From Rhodothermales bacterium (lineage in GTDB: Bacteria; Bacteroidota; Rhodothermia; Rhodothermales; Bin80), in the NCBI GenBank assembly GCA_958296045.1, contig CATQHT010000003.1:2666814-2730813 (forward strand): a stretch of 64,000 nt of DNA, written 5' to 3'. Of this stretch, positions 1 to 27,797 are shown one piece after another (the stretch's first letter is position 1; each line of letters starts with the position of its first letter). The notes beneath the pieces were generated by a model, which ran no database searches, had not been told where the DNA came from, and was given only the letters and a program-made list of their open reading frames with translations. The position numbers were made by a program, and so were the translations under genes.

Positions 1-1395
1 ACATAGTAAGTGATGACGTCGCCGCCTTCGAGGCTGAATTCCTCCAGAAAGAGCAGGTGCTCACCCGCGACGCGCAGAGCACTCTCCTGTTCAACTAGTG
101 CAATACGCTGGGCTTCGCCGCCGCCCACATAGAAGACCAAGTCCAGCGCCGTCACGCCGAAGTCGTCCTCCGCGTCGGCGGCTACCAACACCTCCTCTAT
201 CGCGTTGGCGCGCAGGTCGCGCCCGGGATCCCGCAACGTGATGTGCGGCTTCTCGTCCGGTATCGGCACGATGGCGTGCTGCTGTGGAAACTGGTTCCGT
301 TTGCCCTCCGCATCCAACAGGCGAATCGTGAACAGATCCTCCTCTGCCAGCACAAAGTCGGTCGCAAACCGTCCATCACCCAACGAGCGCATCGTGCGCT
401 GCTGGCCGTGTTCCATCGCCATAACCGCGCTGGCGCTCTTGGCCGAGGCGGTGACCGTCAGGGTCACCGCAGAGCCCTCAAGCCCGACGATGTCACCAGC
501 ATCCTCCTCGATCCTTGGCGCCAATGGCAGGTGCTCTGGATAGACATAGGTCACGTCAATACGCTCGACCGCCGGAAACTCATACACCGAGATCGTGAAT
601 GCTTTTGTGCGCCGTCGCCCAGCTTCCACGAAGTACGTCACGGGTGCCTGAATGCTGGCAAACTCCGCCATAAATGCGGTCCCTTGCGAGCCCGGCTCCA
701 TTGCTCTGCGCGCCCATTCCGCCTCGCCTTCCCTGTAGGCTATCACTACGTCATCGCCGATGCTTCTTTGCAGCTCGGCCACGACAGCTACGGACTCTCC
801 CTTTTCGATTTCCACATCGCCGGGCGACACGCGCATAAAGGGGGTGGTAGCAGCGGCGGTTTCTGCCGCGACGAGGCGAATCCGGTCCACATTGGTGGCA
901 CCGAAAACCAGTAACGCAATGGCCACCGCCACCCCCAGACCTGTGATGACGCGTGCCTGCACTTTGCGTACCAGGGTCCCAGGCACGATAGCGCGCGCCA
1001 TGCGCGCCGCATCGGCGAACAGATCTTGTAGCAGGCGATCATCGGCGCCTTCGGCGCTCAAGGCTCGCGCTTCGGTAGCGCTGTTGATGCGGTCTTCTAG
1101 GTCTGGGCGTTGCTCTTCGATAAATAGCGCGACCTGGCGATCGGTGACAGGACGCCTTAGGGGACGTATCAGTGCCCACCAGGCGGTCCCCAGCGTGGCT
1201 GCCGCACCTAAGGTGGCGGCCACCCAGGGTGGCAGTGCCGCTGCGCGCAGCGCGGGCATCAGAAAAAACAACGCCACCAGGCAGGCGGCGGCTGCGACCA
1301 GGGTGAGCGTGGCGCCCTGCATTACGGTTCGGCGCCGCACTTGGCGTCGCACCTCACCGATCAGGCTATGAAGGTGGGTCTGCACGTTCTTCATG
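1..1395 (-). CDS. DUF4175-like large membrane protein of the BatA/DUF58 operon (5' part only, runs off the window)
   Basis: My own minus-strand translation from an ATG at about 1395 reads MKNVQTHLHSLIGEVRRQVRRRTVMQGATLTLVAAAACLVALFFLMPALRAAALPPWVAATLG... and stays open to position 1. It is absent from the ORF track because it has no stop in the window. It has two N-terminal TM helices and starts a few nt downstream of the vWA gene. Confidence 0.6.
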
Positions 1396-1403
1396 GCGGA
1401 ATG

Positions 1404-3404
1404 CTACGCTTGGGCGGCCTTGCGGTTACGATGAGATAGCACGGTTTCTAGGGCAAACAGCCCCAGGACGAGGATAACGGCCAAGCGCCAAAGCTTTTGG
1501 TCTGACTCGGTGTCCCCAATGGATAAAACCTCTTCTTCTGGAGTTGTCGCGCCACTGGAGCGGCTGACCACGGCGGCATAGGCTTCTTCTGCGGTGCGAG
1601 CCTTAAGCGCGGACTCCGCAGGATCCGTGTTGACCGAAAAGCGGTACTGTTCCTGCTCCGCTGCAGCGACGTAATGGCCTGGCGTTTCGGGGGCCGCAAA
1701 GACGCCCGTGCCCTCTTCATTCATCACGACTTTGTGGATCTGGCCCTCCGGTGTGCTCACGTTCCATTCTGCGTGGGGCATGCCGGTGAGTGTTACGGAT
1801 TCTGCGACCACAAACTGGCGGGGCGGCTCACGCAGCGCGGTGCCATAGGTGGCCATCTGATACAGGAACGGGAGGTACAGCTCCTGCAGCGCAAGGTCTG
1901 TCCAGCTCGTGCCGAAGCTTGAAGTATAGACGAGTATAGTGCCCTGGCCAATCCGCCGTTCCACAAGAAAGGGGTCGCCATTGTCGTAGCGCGCCACCAC
2001 GATGGCGCTGTCGGTGGGGGCGAGGCGCACATACCCGCGAAACGTGGGCCTAATGAGCGCGCTGGAAGACGCCAACGGCGCAAATATCGGATGCTGCGCT
2101 TCCACCTGGCCGATATGGGCGCTACCGCCTGGCGCCTGGGAGCGCACCACCTCTGTGACCTGGCCCACGCCCAGCCTTTCAAGTCCGTAACCGGGGGTCT
2201 GAACGGCATCGCCGAAACCGACAATCACGGTGCCGCCCCGCGTGGCAAACGTGCTCAGCAGCGCGGATTCTGTTGAGCTCAGGCGCGCTGTATTGGTCAC
2301 AAACACCACATCGCTCCTGAGCAGTGCCGAGGCGCTCAGTCGTGTTGCCGCGCTAAAGTCGAAGCGGGACCCTTGGCCCAGGTCAAACGCGCGCTGCAAA
2401 AAGAAGGCGTCCCGGTCTGCAGCCACTGCCAGCACCGCAGGGCGCGCGGCAACCCGGAAGGTAATGTAGTAGCGGTTGTCCGCTATCAGGTCATCGTCTG
2501 CTAGCGCCAGGTGTCCTTGGTATATGCCAGCGCGCGGCGCCACATACTGAAACGAGACCGTCCGAAGCCCGGGCTCGCCGGAAGACCTACGGTCCAGCTC
2601 TTCCTCTCCGATCCAGAGGCTCACCTCTTCGTCAGCGCTCAAAGCCAGATAGCGGGCGCCGATCTGTGTCACGGTGCCGCTGCCGCGCTGGCGCGAACTC
2701 AGGCTGACCGCAGCAAAATGCCGGTTGTCGCGTGCCTCTGTGCCCACCAGGACGGGTTCGAAGGTGACCCCTTCAGGCAGTGTGTATTCCTCTATGGAGG
2801 CCCGAAAGCCGCTCTGCTGCAGGTCAGAAATCAACACTACTCGCTGTGCGCTGTGGCGGGCCTCTTTCAGGATGTTCTCCGCGACTTGCAGAGCCGCCAG
2901 TATGTCCGTCGTACGGTAGGAGGGCTGCGCGGCAGCCGCCAGCACGCCAAGCTCGCGCGTATCGCGCGTGAGCGGCGAGAGCTGCGTGGCGTGGTCGCTG
3001 AACGACACCAGGGCCAGCTCATCTCGGCCGGAAGCCTGCGCGATGATGCGCTCTACGGCGTCTTGCGCCTCCTCAAAGGTGCGCTGGGCCTGCATGCTCA
3101 GTGACTGGTCCAGAAGGATCACCACGGATTCATCGGTGCGCTCGCTCACAAACGGCAGGGGAGCGCGCATCAGGTATGGGCGCGCGAAGGCGGTGGCGAG
3201 AAGGATAATCATCGCCATTCGCAGAATTAGCAGAAGCACATCGCGGATCTTGCGTCGGCGAAGGCGCTCCATAGGCGTGGCCGACAGGAACATCAGGGAG
3301 CTGAAGGGCATTTCGCGCGCCTTCATCCGGCGCACCAAGTGCAGAAGGATCGGCACCAGTGCCACGCCCGCGGCAGCCAGAAAGAGGGGTGTCAGAAAAG
3401 ACAA
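1404..3404 (-). CDS. BatA-type N-terminal anchor + von Willebrand factor A domain protein
   Basis: 666-aa ORF. The N-terminus MSFLTPLFLAAAGVALVPILLHLVRR matches the aerotolerance-regulator (BatA) N-terminal motif. VVILLDQSLSM is a MIDAS-like DxSxS. There is a C-terminal TM helix. The gene is packed 3 nt from the DUF58 gene. Confidence 0.8.
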   Translation of the reverse strand: MSFLTPLFLAAAGVALVPILLHLVRRMKAREMPFSSLMFLSATPMERLRRRKIRDVLLLILRMAMIILLATAFARPYLMRAPLPFVSERTDESVVILLDQSLSMQAQRTFEEAQDAVERIIAQASGRDELALVSFSDHATQLSPLTRDTRELGVLAAAAQPSYRTTDILAALQVAENILKEARHSAQRVVLISDLQQSGFRASIEEYTLPEGVTFEPVLVGTEARDNRHFAAVSLSSRQRGSGTVTQIGARYLALSADEEVSLWIGEEELDRRSSGEPGLRTVSFQYVAPRAGIYQGHLALADDDLIADNRYYITFRVAARPAVLAVAADRDAFFLQRAFDLGQGSRFDFSAATRLSASALLRSDVVFVTNTARLSSTESALLSTFATRGGTVIVGFGDAVQTPGYGLERLGVGQVTEVVRSQAPGGSAHIGQVEAQHPIFAPLASSSALIRPTFRGYVRLAPTDSAIVVARYDNGDPFLVERRIGQGTILVYTSSFGTSWTDLALQELYLPFLYQMATYGTALREPPRQFVVAESVTLTGMPHAEWNVSTPEGQIHKVVMNEEGTGVFAAPETPGHYVAAAEQEQYRFSVNTDPAESALKARTAEEAYAAVVSRSSGATTPEEEVLSIGDTESDQKLWRLAVILVLGLFALETVLSHRNRKAAQA

Positions 3405-3406
3405 CG

Positions 3407-4336
3407 TTAGTTGCGTCGGCTGCTGCGAGCGCAGAGGTACTCGAACAGAGCCACATCGAGCGGGCGGTCCGTAGTGATGAGCGTGTAGTCGATGCCCAGA
3501 AGGCCGCAGGCCCGCTGGATCGCCTGCTGATGCCGCTGGAAATTCTTCTGGTACACGGCGCGCGCGCTGCGTCCTTCCACCAGGAGCTTGGTGCCGGTTT
3601 CCAGGTCTTCGACGTGCATCACATCTTCGAAGTCGAAGTGTACCTCTTGGGGATCGAGAACGTGAATGATGAGCACCTCGTGTCCACAGAACCGGAAATG
3701 GCGCAGCGCATCGATCAGCGCAGCGCTGTCGGAGAGCAGGTCGCTCACGACAACGATGAAGCTGCGTCGCTCCTGTTGCTCCGCTATTGTATGCAGCGGC
3801 TTGTCAAACGAGGTGCCAGCCCCGGCCTCCACCTTGTCGAGCATGGTGAGCAGCGTGAGGAGATGTCCTTTGCTGCTGCGGGCCTCCAGGCGTTCCTGGA
3901 TGTCTTCATCAAATAGCGTCAGACCGGCAGCGTCCCGCTGTCTGATGGCCAGGTAAGCCAATGCAGCCACTAGGTACCGGGCATAGTCGAGCTTGGTGAT
4001 TGCGCCAGACTGGTAGCTCATCGAGCGGCTGCCATCGAGCAGAAGGTGTACACGCGTATTGGTCTCCCCTTCGAACTCTTTGACCAGTGTCCGGTCGGTC
4101 CGCGCATATACCTTCCAGTCGACGCGCCTGAGGTCGTCGCCGGGCATGTAGGGCCGGTACTGCATAAAGTCCACGCTGAACCCTTTATACGGGCTCCGGT
4201 GCAGCCCGGCGATAAAGCCTTCGACCACGGCGCGCGCCAACAGCTCCAGTCCCGATAGGCGCGCCAGGACATGTGGAAGGATGAACCGCGTCGCGGCTTC
4301 GGCCATAAACGGTTGCGCTGGGGCTCTGTGGCCCAA
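3407..4336 (-). CDS. DUF58 domain-containing protein
   Basis: HRSPYKGFSVDFMQYRPYMPGDDLRRVDWKVYARTDRTLVKEFEGE is the DUF58 signature. It sits in the usual operon position upstream of a BatA/vWA gene. Confidence 0.85.
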   Translation of the reverse strand: MGHRAPAQPFMAEAATRFILPHVLARLSGLELLARAVVEGFIAGLHRSPYKGFSVDFMQYRPYMPGDDLRRVDWKVYARTDRTLVKEFEGETNTRVHLLLDGSRSMSYQSGAITKLDYARYLVAALAYLAIRQRDAAGLTLFDEDIQERLEARSSKGHLLTLLTMLDKVEAGAGTSFDKPLHTIAEQQERRSFIVVVSDLLSDSAALIDALRHFRFCGHEVLIIHVLDPQEVHFDFEDVMHVEDLETGTKLLVEGRSARAVYQKNFQRHQQAIQRACGLLGIDYTLITTDRPLDVALFEYLCARSSRRN

Positions 4337-4456
4337 GGAAACGACAAGCGCGTCGGGTTTGTGCCCACGTCACGCAGCGTGACCAAAAGGGCAGCGGCCC
4401 AGGCGCAGAATGAGCGGGAATTCGCGGTGCCTTGCAAGGCCGCGTTGAGGCGACTC

Positions 4457-5494
4457 CTACGGCGATGGAGACATTTTCCAGAACGCGATACCGCCTGCCT
4501 GCCTGCCAACCTCACCGGTCGCAACGAGCTCCAGCGTCGAGAGGTCGATGACATCGACGGCTCCGGCTTCGCTTCCTACGCCTTCGACGCTCACGAACGC
4601 ATACCGTCCGTTGGGCGCAACCACTACACCGTGGGGTACCCTGCGGGATGTGCTGATTCTGGCCACTTCGCGGCCGGTCGCTGCCGCGTATACGCCCACC
4701 GCCGCGGCACTCTTGAGCGTTGCGACAATAAGGTGCCCATCAGGGGTAAGCGCGAGGTTGTAGGGGGCCCCGGCCGCGGCGATGCGGCGCGTGACGGACC
4801 AGGACTCAAGGTCAATTTCCACGATGGCATCCTGGCCGTTGTTGGCTACAAGGGCGCGATGCTCTGTAGGGTGGTGCTCCACCCAGGTGGGTCGTTGGCC
4901 GACTTTGAGCGTGCGCGTGACGGTCAAGCCCAATGCATCGATCTCGTAGAGCATGCCCTGCATCATAGACACGGAGTAGTGGCGCGTGCCGTCGGGCGAG
5001 AGCCGCGAACCGTGTGGCATCGCACCGGTCGTAACGCGTCCCACCTCTTGCATCCGGGCAGGATCCACCACGGAGATGGTGCTGGGGGTATGGGTGCCGT
5101 GTAGGTTGAAGTTGGCCACGTACAACAGTCCGGTGGCGCCAGACACCTGCATGGTGGCTGGAAACAGGTCCAGCGTCACCGCACCCACCCTTTCGTTTGT
5201 GTCGGTCCGGTACTTGATCACGGAGCCGAAGGGCGCACCGTGCGCGACAGAGACGTACCAGTACTTTCCATCCGGGCTGATGGTGAGTCCGTGCGGGCCT
5301 TCGATTTCAGTCGGGATCCGCCCCACCGGAATGGTCTCGATGGTAGTCACACGCTTTTGGCTATAGCGAACCAGCGAAACCGTATCATCAGACTCATTGG
5401 CCACGTACAGGAGGTATTCCTGCGCCTGGGCACCGGCACAGGAGAGTGTCAGCACCAGTGCCAGCGCGGCGGAGCGGGTGGCCGGGACCTTCAT
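4457..5494 (-). CDS. secreted YncE-like beta-propeller repeat protein
   Basis: Signal peptide MKVPATRSAALALVLTLSCAGAQA. Repeated blade motifs: YVANESDDTVSLV, LYVANFNLHG, ALVANNGQDAIVEIDL, AFVSVEGVGSEAGAVDVIDL. Confidence 0.7.
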   Translation of the reverse strand: MKVPATRSAALALVLTLSCAGAQAQEYLLYVANESDDTVSLVRYSQKRVTTIETIPVGRIPTEIEGPHGLTISPDGKYWYVSVAHGAPFGSVIKYRTDTNERVGAVTLDLFPATMQVSGATGLLYVANFNLHGTHTPSTISVVDPARMQEVGRVTTGAMPHGSRLSPDGTRHYSVSMMQGMLYEIDALGLTVTRTLKVGQRPTWVEHHPTEHRALVANNGQDAIVEIDLESWSVTRRIAAAGAPYNLALTPDGHLIVATLKSAAAVGVYAAATGREVARISTSRRVPHGVVVAPNGRYAFVSVEGVGSEAGAVDVIDLSTLELVATGEVGRQAGGIAFWKMSPSP

Positions 5495-5514
5495 GTGGTC
5501 AGATTGGCTTCGGC

Positions 5515-6168
5515 ATGCTCATGTTTTACTGTACGTCCCGGGCGCGGTTGCCCGCGCTTGTCAGGCGCGGAGCCACCGGTGTTTTGCTATGGCGCACGCT
5601 TGCTGACGCCAGGCGGATCTGTGATGCGGACGAGGTGATCCTTGTCGTGGAGCATAAGGATACCGGACTGCGCAATCTGAGGTGGGCGCCGTGCGCCTAT
5701 CTGGAGCGCGTGCTGCCGGAGGAATTCCAGAATGCGGCGCCGTATCTGCCTCCCCGGGAGGTGCTAGCGGCTGGCGGTGTGGTGCTGCGCGCTGGTGTGG
5801 TGCCCTGGGAGATTCTTCAGATTCGCCGGCACGGCCAATGGGATTTGCCCAAAGGCAAGTGCGACGGCGGCGAGTCGTTGCGTGCTTGCGCCTTAAGGGA
5901 GGTGCGTGAAGAGACCGGGGCGAATGATTTGGCGCTGGGCCGCTGCCTCGGAGCCACCGTGCATGGGTATCCGCAGGGCAAAAGCTATCGGGTAAAGCGC
6001 ACCTACTGGTACGAGATGCATAGCGCCTGCGAGGTGTTTTCGCCCCAGGCGGAGGAAGGCATCACGGCTGTGGAGTGGGTCCGGTGGGATCCGGCCAAGA
6101 CCCGGCTGGCGTACCAGACGCTGCGGCATTTGTCAGGGACGCTTGCTGAGCGTCTCAGCGCTCGCTGA
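5515..6168 (+). CDS. NUDIX hydrolase
   Basis: Nudix box GKCDGGESLRACALREVREETG. The ORF track start at 5446 overlaps the convergent propeller gene, so I prefer the internal Met at 5515. The start remains uncertain. Confidence 0.75.
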   Translation: MLMFYCTSRARLPALVRRGATGVLLWRTLADARRICDADEVILVVEHKDTGLRNLRWAPCAYLERVLPEEFQNAAPYLPPREVLAAGGVVLRAGVVPWEILQIRRHGQWDLPKGKCDGGESLRACALREVREETGANDLALGRCLGATVHGYPQGKSYRVKRTYWYEMHSACEVFSPQAEEGITAVEWVRWDPAKTRLAYQTLRHLSGTLAERLSAR

Positions 6169-21930: not shown

Positions 21931-22521
21931 GTCATCGGCGCGTCGCGCGTCGCGGGGGCGGACCGTGGGCTACCGGTTGAGGCCCATGCGGTCGGCAATA
22001 GGGAGAGGTAGCTCCCTATTGGACGAAAACTCCGTGACAGCACGAGGATGACCTTCGTGCTGACGTTGGTTCGAATATGCTGTAGTGCTTGACTCATGAT
22101 GTTGAGGCGTTGGGATTGGATTATCTGACCCTGTGAATTTGTATCTGATCGGTCGGATCACGGAAACGTATAACCCCCGGTGCCATTGTTAACGGCAACT
22201 TCCGCATGCTGATGAACGGCGTGGGATGGAGCAGCGCGCCTTCTTTGCAGACTCGGACAATGGCGCCACTCCCAATAGGCTTTGGCGCTCCAGCTCATAT
22301 GGTGCGGCTTATCACTCGGGCCATAAGTCCGATCCGCGTTAAGCCCTTTGGGACGGGATGATCCTTAGCTACGAGTATCCGGCCCGGGGTGCCACCTTTC
22401 GTATCGGGAAGGCCAGAGCTAGGTGCAATGTAGACCAGCACCAGCGAACGCTCAGCCGTTCGGGTCTCCGTCAGTGGCGGCCATGCGCGCACCAAGGATT
22501 CACCTTACATATGACGCAACT

Positions 22522-23243
22522 ATGGTGAGAATCGAAGCCAGCACATCCACGCTTATCGCCGTGTTCATGATCGCGGCTGCATGCTCTTCTGCTGCATTCG
22601 CGTACGGCCAAGATGCGGCCCAATGGGACGTGACCGCGCCGCTTGGCCCGGTAAAGACTGTGGAATTCTCGACCAGCGAAGGCACATGGATGAACCTCGA
22701 TGTCAGCCCGGAAGGGACTGAAATTGTCTTTGACCTCCTCGGAGACCTGTACGTGCTCCCCATCGAAGGTGGCCAAGCGCGGCTGCTATTGGGAGGTCCC
22801 GCCTTCGACATCCAGCCCCGCTACAGTCCCGACGGCAAGCACATCGCCTTCACCAGCGACCGTGCCGGCGGCGATAACCTTTGGATCGTCAGCCGGGACG
22901 GTACCGACACCACGCAGGTGACCAAAGAGGCTTTTCGCCTGGTCAACGGGCCCGCTTGGACACCGGATGGCAAGTACCTCCTGGGCCGCAAGCACTTCAC
23001 CAGTACCCGCTCTTTGGGGGCTGGCGAGGTATGGATGTATCACATCTCTGGGGGCGCCGGGCTGCAGCTGACCAAGAAGAAGAATTCGCAGCAAGACCAG
23101 GGCAATGAGATTGCGCTCAGTCCCGATGGTCGCTACGTATACTTCAGCGAAGACATCAGTGGCGGTAGCACCTTTCAGTACAACAAGGATCCGCACGGCC
23201 GCATCTATGCCATTCAGCGGTTGGATCGAGTTACAGGCAAGGT
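22522..23243 (+). pseudogene. TolB-like propeller/amidohydrolase gene, segment 1 of 3 (cut by an IS)
   Basis: The signal peptide MVRIEASTSTLIAVFMIAAACSSAAFA is followed by PD40/TolB-like repeats (YSPDGKHIAFTSDRAGGDNLWIV, WTPDGKYLLG). The reading frame runs into the IS inverted repeat at 23244. Confidence 0.8.
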
Positions 23244-23281
23244 CTGCCCTTTACCCATATCGCGACCTAGTCTGACGACTT

Positions 23282-23864
23282 CGATGGCGCCAAAGGGCCC
23301 CCCGCCGCTATCAAGGAGGTCTTCGGCGGCTTCGTGCAGGTGCAGCGCTGCTGTTGGCACAAGCGGGAAAACGTCGTGGCCCACATGAGCAAAGAAGATA
23401 AGCTCGTATATCGGGCGCGCCTGCAGAAAGCCTATCACATTCCAGACTACAGAGACGCGAAGGCGGAAGTCCTATCGATCAAGGACGACCTGGAAGCCTC
23501 CAACCAACTCAAGGCCATGAAGAGTCTGGAGGAAGGCATGGAGGACACGCTCACGATCCAAAGGCTCGCAATAGCCAAAGAGCTCGGCCAAAGCCTGCGC
23601 ACCACCAACTGTATGGAGAATCTCAATAGTACCCTCGGCAGATTGACGCGCAATGTTTGCAGTTGGAACAACTCGGCACAGGTCCACTGCTGGATGGCGC
23701 TGGCTCTCATGTATGCAGAACCCAAACTGAAAACCATCCCCAATCACCAACACCTGCTCAAGCTCCGAAAGGCGCTTATGAAGGTCAGGGCCCGACTGCC
23801 AAACCCCAAAATCCCCTTCTCCCCCCAGCGGGTGCCTTGGACCTATCTTCAGGCCCAGCAATAG
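23282..23864 (+). pseudogene. IS256 (Mutator) family transposase, C-terminal half only
   Basis: DGAKGPPAAIKEVFGGFVQVQRCCWHKRENVVAHMSKEDK...LRTTNCMENLNSTLGRLTR matches the IS256 pattern DGxxGLxxAI...QRCxxHKxRN...TTNxxExLN. The N-terminal half is absent. Confidence 0.75.
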
Positions 23865-24055
23865 TGCTCAGTTCGCGGCGATGAGTGATCATGCGGAGCA
23901 CCCTTGCTGACTTTTTGCACTTCGCCGCTCGTAAGGTTTCGACATGCCGTCACTCAATGTGCGTTCAGACTTGCATTAGAGGTATCCACTGCTTACGATG
24001 CCAGTGCTGCTCCGTGGTGGCGTGCCTCTGGCTCGTGCGTCGATGCGCGACAGGG

Positions 24056-26368
24056 TCAAGAAAGTATGCTGCTCCCATGGCCATAGTCGCAACCAAGCCC
24101 TTCTCGATACGCTGCCGGCAGTATTTCGTACCCAAAGCAAATGGTGGATAGTCGCTCTAATCCGCGCCACATGATCTGAAAGCCGGGCGGTCCATCGCGA
24201 GTTCGATTCTGATAGCCGCCCATTACTGCTACTAGCAGAAGCGCCGCTTCCAGGGTGCGGGGTACCGGCAGCTTCACGTTCTTAGCATAAAAGGAGAGAG
24301 CAATCAACTGCATCGGGGAGAATATCAGCTCGGCATCTAATCCAGGGACGGCACGCCCCAGTAAGGTGAGCATCATGACATAGCAGGCGATCACGCAGTA
24401 CACCGCCAACCCACGTTCCAGGCGCGCTGCCGAACGCATCGCCATGCGTTCCACCTTACAGCCACTCTTGAGCACACGGAAAAAGTCTTCAACACGCCAT
24501 CGCCGGGTATAATAAGTCAGGATCTGCACCGCTTCTTCTGCGCTGTGCACCGCCATACTGGTCAGCAGATACCATTCCACCGCCTTCTCTCCCTTCGGGG
24601 GCGCGATCTCCCGGACATGCACGCCGTACATCGCTACGGATCCCCCTTGCCGCTGCGTGGCGGGCAGCTGTACGCAATGGTAGCGTACCTCGGCTCGGGC
24701 AATACGGTGACTACGTCCGTGGCGCACCTTCTTCCTGGAAGACTTCGGACGCGCCGTGACCCGTTGGATCTCTATCCGCACCTTCGCTGCGGCAGGACCG
24801 CTGCGAAGCGTCGCAAACAGCTTTTTATTCTTCGCCAGTCTCCGGTCATGACGGGCGCGGACCAGGAGTTCCACGCGATCCTGTGCCCGCTGGGCGGCAA
24901 ATAGCGCAAAGTTATCCGCCTCCCGGTCCATCACGCAGATGAGGCGACACTGCTTGGGAATCTCCTCTGCTGCTTCGCAGATGTCCAGAAATCCGTCTAA
25001 CCACTGCTGCGATCGAGGTTTGAGCGGTCCCGTATCTGGATCCCGATAACTACAACGTAATATCCCCAGGGGCAGGCCATCGGTAGTAGTAACCAGCGTG
25101 GCATGAAGGGGCATCCCACGGGATTTTGCTTTCGTCTGGTTGGTACCTATGACCTGCAAGTCTTCACAGGCGGGTCGCGTGCTGAAATTCAGCTTGGTGG
25201 TATCCTGTATGCAGAGTACCGCCTTCTGACTCCGTATCCGCTCAATCGTACGTTTGCGATGCGGCGCCAGCATGTTTTCGGGTGTTACGTCGGTCTGCTT
25301 GCTGCTCAGAAGCCGGTAATGGGCCTTCACCGCCGCCCTATCATGGCTTATATGGGAGCATATAGGCTTTCCTATCACATCGGCCAACAACGATGCGCTC
25401 TTCACCAGCCGCGTGGACAGCCGCCTGTCTCCCAGCGGAGCATCTCCGAACTCTGCCTCAACCCAGTCGTCCATGCCTTCGTGCGGTTGCCTGACCGGAC
25501 GCAGCGCCACCTCGGGTACGCCCAAGTACGAGCGCCACCGGCGGTCCACTTCGTACATGAACAAGGCCTTCGGCGCTTCTTCTTTGGAATGTGCGTGGCG
25601 CTTGCCCCCAGCAGTATAGCCGATGGACAGAAAATTGGCCGCCTTCAAGCACGTACCTTTCCATGGAGGTTCCACATACGTTTCTATCAACCAGGGGTGG
25701 TATCCATAAAGCGCATAACAGTCGTCAGATAACTGCTTCAACACCCTGCCGAGTACGTGACTGGCCAGGTATTTGCAAGTGCCGCGTATCAGAAAGCGGC
25801 TCAAACAGAAGATGCGGTGGAGGTGCGCTTGGCGTTGGGCATCGCTCCATGCCATGAAGTGTTCCCTTGCGGCCAAGCGCAAGGCCGGGGCGGAAAAACC
25901 TACCGCGCCCAGATATCCATGCGCGCTCACTACCAGGTACCGCAGCTGGGCACCAACAAGGGTGGTCGTACCACGAGGATGCTCATGGTGCAGCAGGGTA
26001 TTCCACACCGCACGCTGTGCTGCGGTCCGAACTCTTACTACTGCAAGACCTTCCACCTCACCCAAAGTCGCGGGCATCGCCACCGGTGGAGCAACCGCCT
26101 CGTCCAACAGGCGGGGCGACGCCTGCGCAGCATGATTGTTGAGCGGTGCTGGCAGTGTGATCTCACCCCGTGCCTCCAGCTTCAAGAGGGCTTTCGCGCA
26201 GGTAGCTACCTGTGCCCTGCCTTTGGCATCTACAAATCCAAAGTCCTCACATACACGGCGCGCAATCGCGGTGCGATTGGGAAGGCTCTCGTCAGAAAGC
26301 CTCTTCTTCAAGCGAATGCGCCCCCGGGGAGCACTGAGAGTCCGCAAAACCTGATTCTGCTCGAACAT
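24056..26368 (-). CDS. fusion transposase: N-terminal DUF4338 (DruA-like) domain + Tn5/IS4-type DDE transposase
   Basis: 770-aa intact ORF. The N-terminal part GAQLRYLVVSAHGYLGAVGFSAPALRLAAREHFMAWSDAQR...CLSRFLIR...GYHPWLIETYVEPPWKGTCLKAANFLSIGYTAGGKR fits my memory of the DUF4338 pattern. The C-terminal part has Tn5-like DDE regions (LCIQDTTKLNF, ICVMDREADNF, YYTRRWRVEDFFRVLKSGCKVE). Confidence 0.8.
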   Translation of the reverse strand: MFEQNQVLRTLSAPRGRIRLKKRLSDESLPNRTAIARRVCEDFGFVDAKGRAQVATCAKALLKLEARGEITLPAPLNNHAAQASPRLLDEAVAPPVAMPATLGEVEGLAVVRVRTAAQRAVWNTLLHHEHPRGTTTLVGAQLRYLVVSAHGYLGAVGFSAPALRLAAREHFMAWSDAQRQAHLHRIFCLSRFLIRGTCKYLASHVLGRVLKQLSDDCYALYGYHPWLIETYVEPPWKGTCLKAANFLSIGYTAGGKRHAHSKEEAPKALFMYEVDRRWRSYLGVPEVALRPVRQPHEGMDDWVEAEFGDAPLGDRRLSTRLVKSASLLADVIGKPICSHISHDRAAVKAHYRLLSSKQTDVTPENMLAPHRKRTIERIRSQKAVLCIQDTTKLNFSTRPACEDLQVIGTNQTKAKSRGMPLHATLVTTTDGLPLGILRCSYRDPDTGPLKPRSQQWLDGFLDICEAAEEIPKQCRLICVMDREADNFALFAAQRAQDRVELLVRARHDRRLAKNKKLFATLRSGPAAAKVRIEIQRVTARPKSSRKKVRHGRSHRIARAEVRYHCVQLPATQRQGGSVAMYGVHVREIAPPKGEKAVEWYLLTSMAVHSAEEAVQILTYYTRRWRVEDFFRVLKSGCKVERMAMRSAARLERGLAVYCVIACYVMMLTLLGRAVPGLDAELIFSPMQLIALSFYAKNVKLPVPRTLEAALLLVAVMGGYQNRTRDGPPGFQIMWRGLERLSTICFGYEILPAAYREGLGCDYGHGSSILS

Positions 26369-26520
26369 GCTGCTATAGTAAGCAACACGACTTACAATGT
26401 CAAGTGGTCCCTATGGGCCGGGGGCAGACCTGAGCACTATTGCTGGGCCTGAAGAGAGGTCCAATGCACCCGCAGAGTCGTCAGACTAGGTCGCGATATG
26501 GGTAAAGGGCAGGGCAAGGT

Positions 26521-27091
26521 TGTGACATTGGTTAGCGGGGCTGGCGGGGCTGCGCGCCCTGAGCCCTCGCCCGACGGTCGCCACCTCGCCTTTGTGAGAC
26601 GGGTGCGATCCAAGAGTGTACTGTACCTGTACGACATGGCCAGTGGTGCCCAGCGGCCGCTATGGGACGGGTTAAGCCACGATCAGCAGGAGGCCTGGGC
26701 TATCTTTGGCGTTTATCCTGGCTTTGACTGGACGCCGGATGGAAAGCACATCATCTTGTGGGCCGAGGGCAAAATTTGGCGCGTGGCAATCACTCACGGC
26801 CAAGTGGCCGAAGTGCCCTTTACGGCGCCGGTCAAGCAAGAGGTGCACGAAACGTTGCGCTTCCGGCAGGAGGTCTTCGGCACCTCTTTCGACGTTCGCA
26901 TGATTCGCGATGCAGTCACCTCGCCCGATGGTGGCACGCTGGTGTTTGCGGCGCTGGGCACCCTGTGGAAAAAGACGCTGCCCAGCGGAGAGCCTCAGCG
27001 CCTGACAGACGACGATGTGCACGAGCACGAACCCGCATTTAGCCCCGATGGTAAAGTTGTGGTGTACACCATGTGGAGTGACTCGACGTTG
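26521..27091 (+). pseudogene. TolB-like propeller/amidohydrolase gene, segment 2 of 3
   Basis: The frame continues exactly across the IS once one target-duplication copy is removed (..RVTGKV|VTLVSGAGGAARPEPSPDGRHLAF..). It ends at codon ..WSDSTL immediately before the intron GTGCG. Confidence 0.8.
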
Positions 27092-27797
27092 GTGCGCCAG
27101 GCTAACTGGTGCCAGTACAGGGAGTGAAAGTCTCCCGATGTGAAGGACTAACCATCCACGCATCTCCTCGAGCCGTGCGTCGGTACCCGCGAGGGTGCAG
27201 GCGAAGCGTCGGTAGAGGTGCGGGTGGGCAGGGCTAATGAGCACCGAAAATGTCATCGTCCGGGACGCCGAGGGTTTCTTCGTGGTCGAAGGCAACACCT
27301 TCTTTGCCGTTAATGGTGAGGCGGAGGAGGGTCCCGCGGTGTCCAAGAACCCAGGCACGCACGTACGTACTGCATCGGGACCTGGGAGGTCTCTCCACTA
27401 CCCATCCCTTCGGGGAGGGTCGCCAAAGCGTAGGCTAAATGCCGATCGGAGGATGTACGGTGGAGAGAAGTCAGATGCGACCATAGTAGCTATGAAGCCA
27501 GCGAACAACGCGTGGATGACCACGGGGCGGAGCCGGTGGAGCCAAGGGTCGCACCCAAGGGGAAAGCGGGAAGCTGGATTCATGCCGGACTCTGGGCTGG
27601 ATTACGTGGATCTGTCCAAGAGCTGTGGACTCAGTGCCACAGTCGGGGCGCAGGTGTACCGCTTACGGCTGGAGGTGGGGTTTCCCCACTTCCTAACGTC
27701 ATGCGCGGGAGCGCGACCTGCGGGAAGAGCCGTGTGCGTTAACGCGCACGCACGGATCTGTGCGGGGCCCCAGGGGAAACCCTGGGGCTACCGCGAT
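27092..27797 (+). mobile_element. group II intron, ORF-less (intron-encoded protein deleted)
   Basis: 5' GUGCGCC. Domain V is at 27727-27758 (GAGCCGUGUGCGUUAACGCGCACGCACGGAUC, with the AGC triad and AC bulge). Domain VI is GCCCCAGGG-GAAA-CCCUGGGGC with an unpaired A at 27790, 7 nt before the 3' end ..AU. Removal leaves the exons in frame. Confidence 0.8.

Follow-up and report, generated by a model that had tools for sequence, protein, structure and literature searches.

The IS4 family of insertion sequences (IS) is defined by the YREK signature, Y-(2)-R-(3)-E-(6)-K (PMC2266710), and within this family the IS50 subgroup comprises elements with a single open reading frame (ORF) without a frameshift, 5'-CT ends following the consensus CW------Y---CA-A--W-, target duplications of 8-9 bp and a typical size of 1350-1550 bp (De Palmenaer et al., 2008; PMC2266710). 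Here we describe an element of this kind at positions 23244-26512 of a 64,000-nucleotide stretch of a Rhodothermales bacterium genome (assembly GCA_958296045.1, contig CATQHT010000003.1, positions 2,666,814 to 2,730,813; the whole analyzed stretch is referred to as the window). The element has the YREK motif (YTRRWRVEDFFRVLK), a single ORF, CT ends and an 8-bp duplication, and its tip, CTGCCCTTTACCCATATCGC, agrees with the subgroup end consensus at six of the seven specified positions, the same tip being found at both ends of its relatives. Its length of 3269 bp lies outside the subgroup range owing to an N-terminal DruA domain and to additions at its ends; size is descriptive here and not diagnostic. 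An earlier note on this DNA had drawn attention to 83-bp terminal inverted repeats (IRs), one of them split by a 545-bp transposase fragment from another IS family. Our analysis indicates that the element is likely one of multiple copies of a recently active IS of the IS4 family (Tn5/IS50-like), in which two changes to the ends were fixed before the element multiplied.

The whole mosaic IS, with its transposase on the minus strand, is bounded by an 8-bp direct repeat, GGCAAGGT, the left copy of which lies at 23236-23243 and the right copy at 26513-26520 (a strand-less feature), and this was the sole flanking direct repeat of 5-12 bp at any candidate boundary tested. When the element and one copy of the 8-mer are removed in silico, a plus-strand PD40 beta-propeller/amidohydrolase gene reads through in one open frame (...IYAIQRLDRVTGKVVTLVSGAGG...); the 5' part of this gene occupies 22423-23243, and the gene resumes at 26521. 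The presence of the 8-mer on both sides and the restored host frame bear out the earlier note's claim that the 3269-bp IS was inserted as a single unit. With regard to transposition, the evidence in the window is that of a simple insertion with duplication, the corresponding criterion for the IS50 subgroup being cut-and-paste transposition via a hairpin on the transposon end.

Read in the direction of the transposase gene, the right (transposase-downstream) end of the element, IRR, lies at the lower coordinates. Its 37-bp tip (23244-23280, plus strand) is complementary to 26476-26512 at 37 of 37 positions, and the first ~17 nt of this tip, CTGCCCTTTACCCATAT, agree with the terminal consensus of the wider clade. 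The subterminal 46-bp part of the same end is found at 23826-23871 (plus strand), with the transposase fragment between it and the tip; delimited slightly differently, as 23828-23874 and 26427-26473, the inner blocks are 47 nt long and 94% complementary. Complementarity was re-computed, and the earlier description of a perfect 37-bp outer repeat and a 46-bp inner repeat separated by 545 bp holds. Neither the outer nor the inner block occurs again in the 64-kb window, and none would be expected in 100 shuffles. When the 545 bp are left out, 81 of 85 positions agree between the left end in window coordinates and the contiguous right end. What now serves as the left end of the element (26428-26512, minus strand) is its own right end copied in inverted orientation over 85 bp (tip of 37 bp, CT, and 46 bp) and is collinear with the right end of L002, one of the closest relatives described below.

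The same architecture recurs in other copies. For the source genome, copy number and junction conservation were obtained as counts of distinct predicted proteins and not of aligned loci, and on this basis there are eight distinct intact 770-aa transposase variants with 95.3-99.5% identity, plus several truncated ones; the window transposase is identical to one predicted protein (P0127) and the 159-aa fragment ORF of the window to another (P0145). Seven distinct 159-aa ORFs of this genome cross the junction between the fragment and the 46-bp block (...PFSPQ/RVPWTYLQAQQ followed by a stop, the slash marking the junction), and P0124 represents an eighth ORF across this junction in another frame. 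The junction between the fragment and the 37-bp tip is crossed by P0149 (...GPFGAIE/VVRLGRDMGKGQ), located on a different contig (of 1.05 Mb) and on the opposite strand, in which the tip ends at the same base and is followed by an unrelated flank. Additionally, an unrelated ENA metagenome supplied a 3182-bp contig (L001) whose first base corresponds exactly to 26512 and whose last corresponds to 23331. It thereby spans the 85-bp copy, the tip internal to it, the transposase gene and the 46-bp block together with 495 bp of the fragment, and it aligns to the window without gaps and with 64 differences in 3182 bp (98% identity). An assembly artefact was ruled out by L001, an independent assembly with the same architecture. 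An exact search with 27 nt of the tip gave no match in JGI metagenome contigs or viral contigs. Taken together, L001 and at least eight other copies share these junctions, which indicates that the whole 3269-bp mosaic is the transposing unit, and the 545-bp segment, as judged from these sequences, is evidently a normal part of the element. The earlier note had held the segment to be foreign to the normal element and had named its presence in other genomic copies as the observation that would tell against this; since L001, the source-genome ORFs and P0149 carry the same junctions, that claim does not stand.

Relatives with short ends help to interpret the 85-bp copy. The closest outgroups, a metagenome contig (L002) and a near-identical locus (L003) from a Rhodothermales metagenome-assembled genome (MAG), share 83% protein identity with the window transposase, are 2640 bp long and have terminal inverted repeats of ~16 nt (CTGCCGTTTACCCATA / CTGCCCCTTACCCATA). 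A further relative with 67% identity (L004) and a dozen metagenome relatives with 40-45% identity have tips of the form CTGCCCTTTRCCCAYAA, 13-25 nt in length, and 8-bp duplications, the IRs of L010-L032 all falling within 13-25 bp. Duplications of 8 bp were read in L002 (GGCTAGCT), L003 (GCCTAGCC) and L004 (GGCTAGGT/GGCTAGCT), and also in L011 and L017. Relatives measure 2.4-3.0 kb, and throughout the clade the distance from the tip to the transposase ATG is 59-61 nt. A scan of genome contigs recovered the 83% and 67% relatives only, in Rhodothermales MAGs, and a profile scan of metagenomes recovered only relatives with 45% identity or less.

In L002 and L003 the homolog of the 46 + 37 bp stretch is contiguous and is found at the right end only, their left end consisting of the 16-nt tip followed directly by the 5' untranslated region (UTR); the 85-bp block is missing from the left ends of L002, L003, L004 and L005. 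In the window, the counterpart of that left tip (IRL), CTGCCCCCGGCCCATA, lies at 26412-26427 (minus strand), 59 nt upstream of the ATG, and is now internal and degenerate. The stretch from 26427 to 26366 aligns without gaps to the terminus and 5'UTR of L002, L003 and L005 with 45, 46 and 43 identities, respectively, in 62 positions. The 85-bp block runs from tip to inside, as the old left tip does, and its inner 8 nt, GCTCAGGT, directly adjoin that tip, the junction being exact to the base. Between the window and L001, the stranded tip and UTR form the segment that diverges fastest, with differences at 6 of 59 positions compared with 58 of 3123 elsewhere (p=0.001) and compared with 1 of 85 in the outer copy (p=0.02); this raised divergence fits a loss of constraint on the old tip. 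These comparisons indicate that the block at 26428-26512 is an added inverted copy of the right end and that the ancestral left tip persists inside the element, which thus possesses two tips of the right-end type and, as a consequence, an apparent 83-bp IR.

The most direct alternative is that the IS natively has 83-bp terminal IRs and that this copy received a foreign 545-bp insertion before or during its last transposition, as would be suggested by 37 + 46 bp that are unbroken at one end of the element and interrupted at the other, with a single 8-bp duplication around the whole unit. This is quite improbable, however, because L001 and no fewer than eight other copies have the fragment at these junctions, because the relatives have IRs of 13-25 bp and left ends without the 85-bp block, and because the ancestral left tip is located exactly at the inner edge of that block, 59 nt from the ATG. 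What the sister elements conserve as an inverted repeat is confined to the terminal ~17 nt, and for this reason the 83-bp IR is best regarded as a historical duplication and neither as an ancestral long IR nor as a recognition requirement. Transposases of the Tn5 type recognize just about the terminal 17-20 bp of their ends, and 19-bp ends are enough for Tn5. The 37-bp tip that lies outside the fragment exceeds the ~17-nt conserved end, so the tip would be expected to suffice for the transposase and the split of the long IR to be without effect on mobility, which is consistent with the spread of this isoform to many loci. The 83-bp IR reported earlier thus stands as a sequence repeat and not as a long recognition site for the transposase, given the 13-25 bp of the relatives and the secondary origin of the 85-bp copy; the accompanying question of which part of the IR is needed is answered by comparison, namely that the tip alone would be needed.

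The 545-bp segment (23281-23825, plus strand) is an internal piece of an IS256-family transposase gene carried as a pseudogene passenger. It matches the Pfam family Transposase_mut (PF00872) over positions 249-362 of 379 (E 7e-12) and the NCBIfam IS256 transposase model NF033543 over positions 193-336 of 338 (E 5e-29, 101 bits against a cut-off of 150), in line with the earlier reading of the segment as coding for the C-terminal part of an IS256-type transposase. The fragment corresponds to the C-terminal 40% of such a protein (~145 conserved residues), starting at the DG(A/G)KG motif; measured against a complete Transposase_mut gene, the N-terminal 60% is missing. Two ORFs, 23334-23864 and 23385-23864, run from the fragment into the 46-bp block. 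Elsewhere in the source genome, IS256-like sequence continues upstream of one fragment boundary in P0150 (...GLLGVVDGA, sense strand) and downstream of the other in P0147 and P0144 (...PFSPQPRF...), each at other loci, and since native sequence runs past both boundaries the fragment is an internal chunk of a decayed IS256-like gene. P0122 and P0124 are frameshifted versions of the fragment ORF, and the divergence of the fragment protein (4-10 differences in 159 aa) is no lower than the divergence of the transposase (4-36 in 770 aa), indicative of a decaying passenger pseudogene. Nothing in the window matches the tail of P0147 (PRFNNNGPPP...), which is therefore not derived from the IS.

A full-length close relative of the IS256-type piece was not found among 5.8 billion proteins, which returned fragments only; the best non-fragmentary relative, L007 (59% aa identity), is itself frameshifted and without clear IRs. 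The IS256-like remnant of L007 adjoins a truncated ACR_tran gene, and positions 1-5700 of that locus also encode an IS110-type transposase, a further DDE_Tnp_1 transposase and an ORF resembling a group II intron reverse transcriptase. In the source genome, a 214-aa predicted protein from the 1.05-Mb contig (P0126) joins the C-terminus of an IstB (IS21-type) protein to an IS256-like remnant at ...QRCCW..., which indicates a further insertion of one IS into another, and this genome looks very IS-rich.

The fragment meets the right end between nt 37-39 and the remainder of that end, with no IS nucleotides lost and one base changed. It lacks IS256-type IRs, the best 20-nt match between its two ends being 10 of 20, and no direct repeat of 5-12 bp was found within 4 nt on either side of its boundaries. 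Entry of the fragment, as it now stands, by IS256 transposition was rejected on the grounds that its junctions show neither a duplication nor IS256 termini. We infer that it was joined by some illegitimate joining or filler-capture event, for which the capture of filler DNA at a break and template switching during repair are plausible guesses.

These data also bear on a reading in which two elements are nested, an outer IS256-derived element that carries a deletion and is bounded by the 37-bp repeats, and an IS4-type element bounded by the 46-bp repeats inserted within it. Neither the 8-bp duplication nor the 37-bp IR would fall outside the range of the IS256 family, in which duplications measure 8-9 bp, and the IS256-type coding fragment does lie directly inside the left 37-bp block. 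The terminal motif of the IS4-type clade is, however, present in the 37-bp tip, and this tip forms the ends of L002-L005, which hold no IS256 sequence; the 46-bp blocks lack that motif, and their homolog in L002 and L003 is internal and contiguous with the tip. Moreover, no duplication surrounds 23826/26475 (within 3 nt on either side) or 23244/26427, and none flanks the fragment. We consider this reading very improbable, and the suggestion in the earlier note of two nested elements, each with its own duplication, fails for the same reason, the inner boundaries being devoid of duplications.

The history that best accommodates the above would begin with an ancestral form such as that in the Rhodothermales MAGs, ~2.64 kb long, with ~16-bp IRs (CTGCCSYTTACCCATA) and a left tip 59-61 nt before the ATG, which would have inserted with 8-bp duplications of a GGCTAGCC-like target. 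One copy (A) would then have inserted, in inverted orientation, into another copy (B), with positions 78-85 of the right end of B as its target, after which the transposase could have paired the right tip of B with the right tip of A so that 85 bp of B and all of A became a new mobile unit, leaving the left tip of A stranded inside and decaying. Before or after this, the 545-bp IS256-type piece would have entered the right-end region directly behind nt 37-39. Such a nested self-insertion is, in our inference, the most likely origin of the 85-bp copy; GCTCAGGT and the present target duplication GGCAAGGT both end in AGGT next to CTGCC. Two other origins of the block were considered and rejected: a circle or tandem-dimer junction would give the opposite orientation, and a hairpin fold-back would duplicate left-end and not right-end sequence.

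Several observations weigh against the proposed history or parts of it. The likeness of GCTCAGGT to the target consensus is weak (~5-6 of 8 positions), and no direct witness of a nested self-insertion survives, such as a duplicate of the 8-bp target or the remainder of copy B. The junction between the 85-bp copy and the ancestral tip is seen as DNA in the window and in L001 only, and L001 ends 50 nt short of the 37-bp tip, where it may have been cut off by a break in the assembly graph caused by variation between copies. The protein-based counts leave room for copies that lack the fragment or the 85-bp copy, no intermediate with only one of the two changes was found among the genomes and metagenomes searched, and the sufficiency of the terminal ~17-20 bp derives from the relatives and from Tn5 biochemistry.

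Some of these points would be accommodated by a different route to the same architecture, in which the 85-bp copy was produced by ectopic recombination or gene conversion involving two copies, or by template switching during repair of a donor break, with the fragment perhaps captured in the same event. Tn5-type excision makes breaks at the ends of the element, and both anomalies are situated in these end regions; furthermore, the presumed 8-bp target (GCTCAGKT) has no second copy and the fragment junctions are likewise without the hallmarks of transposition. Routes through repair do not, however, predict a junction exactly at the tip. The 85-bp copy meets the old tip to the base, as would be the case had the transposase joined this tip to a target, and the adjoining 8-mer ends in AGGT as the present duplication does; we regard a different route as unlikely in comparison with nested self-insertion.

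Whether the exchange of the native left end for a copy of the right end was itself advantageous, through more efficient transposition or through escape from regulation linked to the end, is a tentative proposal to which we give only a small chance. The two natural ends of Tn5 differ in activity. If the proposal were true, it would explain the presence of at least eight intact copies here compared with the one or two copies of the basal form in its MAG, and the element would constitute a natural "hyperactive-end" variant, with end asymmetry under selection in the wild and the promoter now lying 85 bp inside.

The transposase gene itself (24056-26368, minus strand) is one ORF of 770 aa with a DruA/DUF4338 domain, a Tnp_DNA_bind domain, DDE_Tnp_1 and a Tn5 dimerisation domain. 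Matches above the Pfam cut-offs were obtained for PF01609, PF14706 and PF02281, and the NCBIfam model NF033590 ("IS4 family transposase") was matched with 285 bits against a cut-off of 160. The ~300-aa N-terminal DruA/DUF4338 domain (residues 1-300; PF14236, E 3e-19) belongs to a family that has been termed GNAT-like (PMC10853773). The combination of DruA with a Tn5-type transposase is found in more than 4600 homologs, and the role of the domain within the transposase appears to be unstudied; ordinary IS4 transposases borne on plasmids align only with aa ~300-750 (32-36% identity). Between the internal ancestral tip and the ATG is a promoter-like site, TTGACA-17-TACTAT (26375-26403, minus strand; 10 of 12 matches), which presumably functions as the promoter of the gene; the block is mostly kept in L002, L003 and L005, and L001 reads TACCAT. 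The ATG follows just 6 nt past the -10 hexamer, which suggests that the transposase mRNA may be leaderless or nearly so. The 3' non-coding region of the IS (23872-24055, minus strand) is 79-80% identical to the sequence 3' of the transposase genes of L002 and L003.

The target 8-mers of the clade, GGCAAGGT in the window, GGCTAGCT in L002 (2934-2941), GCCTAGCC in L003, GGCTAGGT in L004 and GGCTAGGG in L011, are alike and near-palindromic, and this likeness suggests that the clade markedly prefers GGCTAGCC-like target sites. In one distant relative (L024, 38% aa identity) the tips, CTGCCCAACCCCCACAA, form the innermost part of an imperfect 104-nt inverted repeat (1-104 and 2531-2634) that is rich in short palindromes; here too the ends may have been extended, or the element may have inserted into a palindromic repeat. 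A check of the L011 3' region for a passenger gene gave nothing convincing. On the host side, the effect of the insertion is an ordinary one, the knock-out of the PD40/amidohydrolase gene. The same gene is interrupted again ~610 bp further downstream by a group II intron without an ORF (27127-27797, plus strand), recognized by the Rfam models RF02005 (domains 1-4, 27127-27351, 167.9 bits) and RF00029 (domains 5/6, 27725-27797, 40 bits), so that two different mobile elements have struck this gene.

The element offers a clean and datable case of a Tn5-type IS that has altered its own ends and spread junk from another IS family, and it cautions annotators that an IR which is long or split and a "foreign transposase fragment" can both belong to one mobile unit. 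It is a new isoform of a known kind of element, with a neat history that holds no surprise for the IS specialist. With IS50/Tn5 it shares a single-ORF YREK DDE transposase, the Tn5 DNA-binding and dimerisation domains and a weakly palindromic target, but it differs in size, with 1.35-1.55 kb in that group compared with 2.64 kb in the basal form and 3.27 kb in the window form, which reaches twice the usual size through its DruA/DUF4338 domain and longer 3' region, to which the 85-bp end copy and the 545-bp passenger are added. The basal sisters (L002, and loci L003 and L005 of OZ244626.1) have in common with it the tip motif, the 5'UTR/promoter block, the 8-bp duplication and the homolog of the 85 bp at the right end, but have no 85-bp copy at the left end, no IS256 fragment and an IR of only ~16 bp; one full and one partial copy were found in their MAG, compared with at least eight intact copies in the source genome. 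The IS256 family shares with the 545 bp the C-terminal residues of Transposase_mut, but both terminal IRs and the duplication of such elements are absent from the window piece. Lastly, in the mobilization of composite elements by new ends, as with the outside and inside ends of Tn5 and Tn10, the transposase uses any two correctly oriented ends. The element described here resembles these systems in that two identical right-type tips, inverted relative to each other, delimit the unit that is moved while the old left tip is bypassed; it differs from them in that one of the two "IS copies" has been cut to 85 bp, so that the outcome is a new IS isoform and not a cargo-bearing composite transposon.

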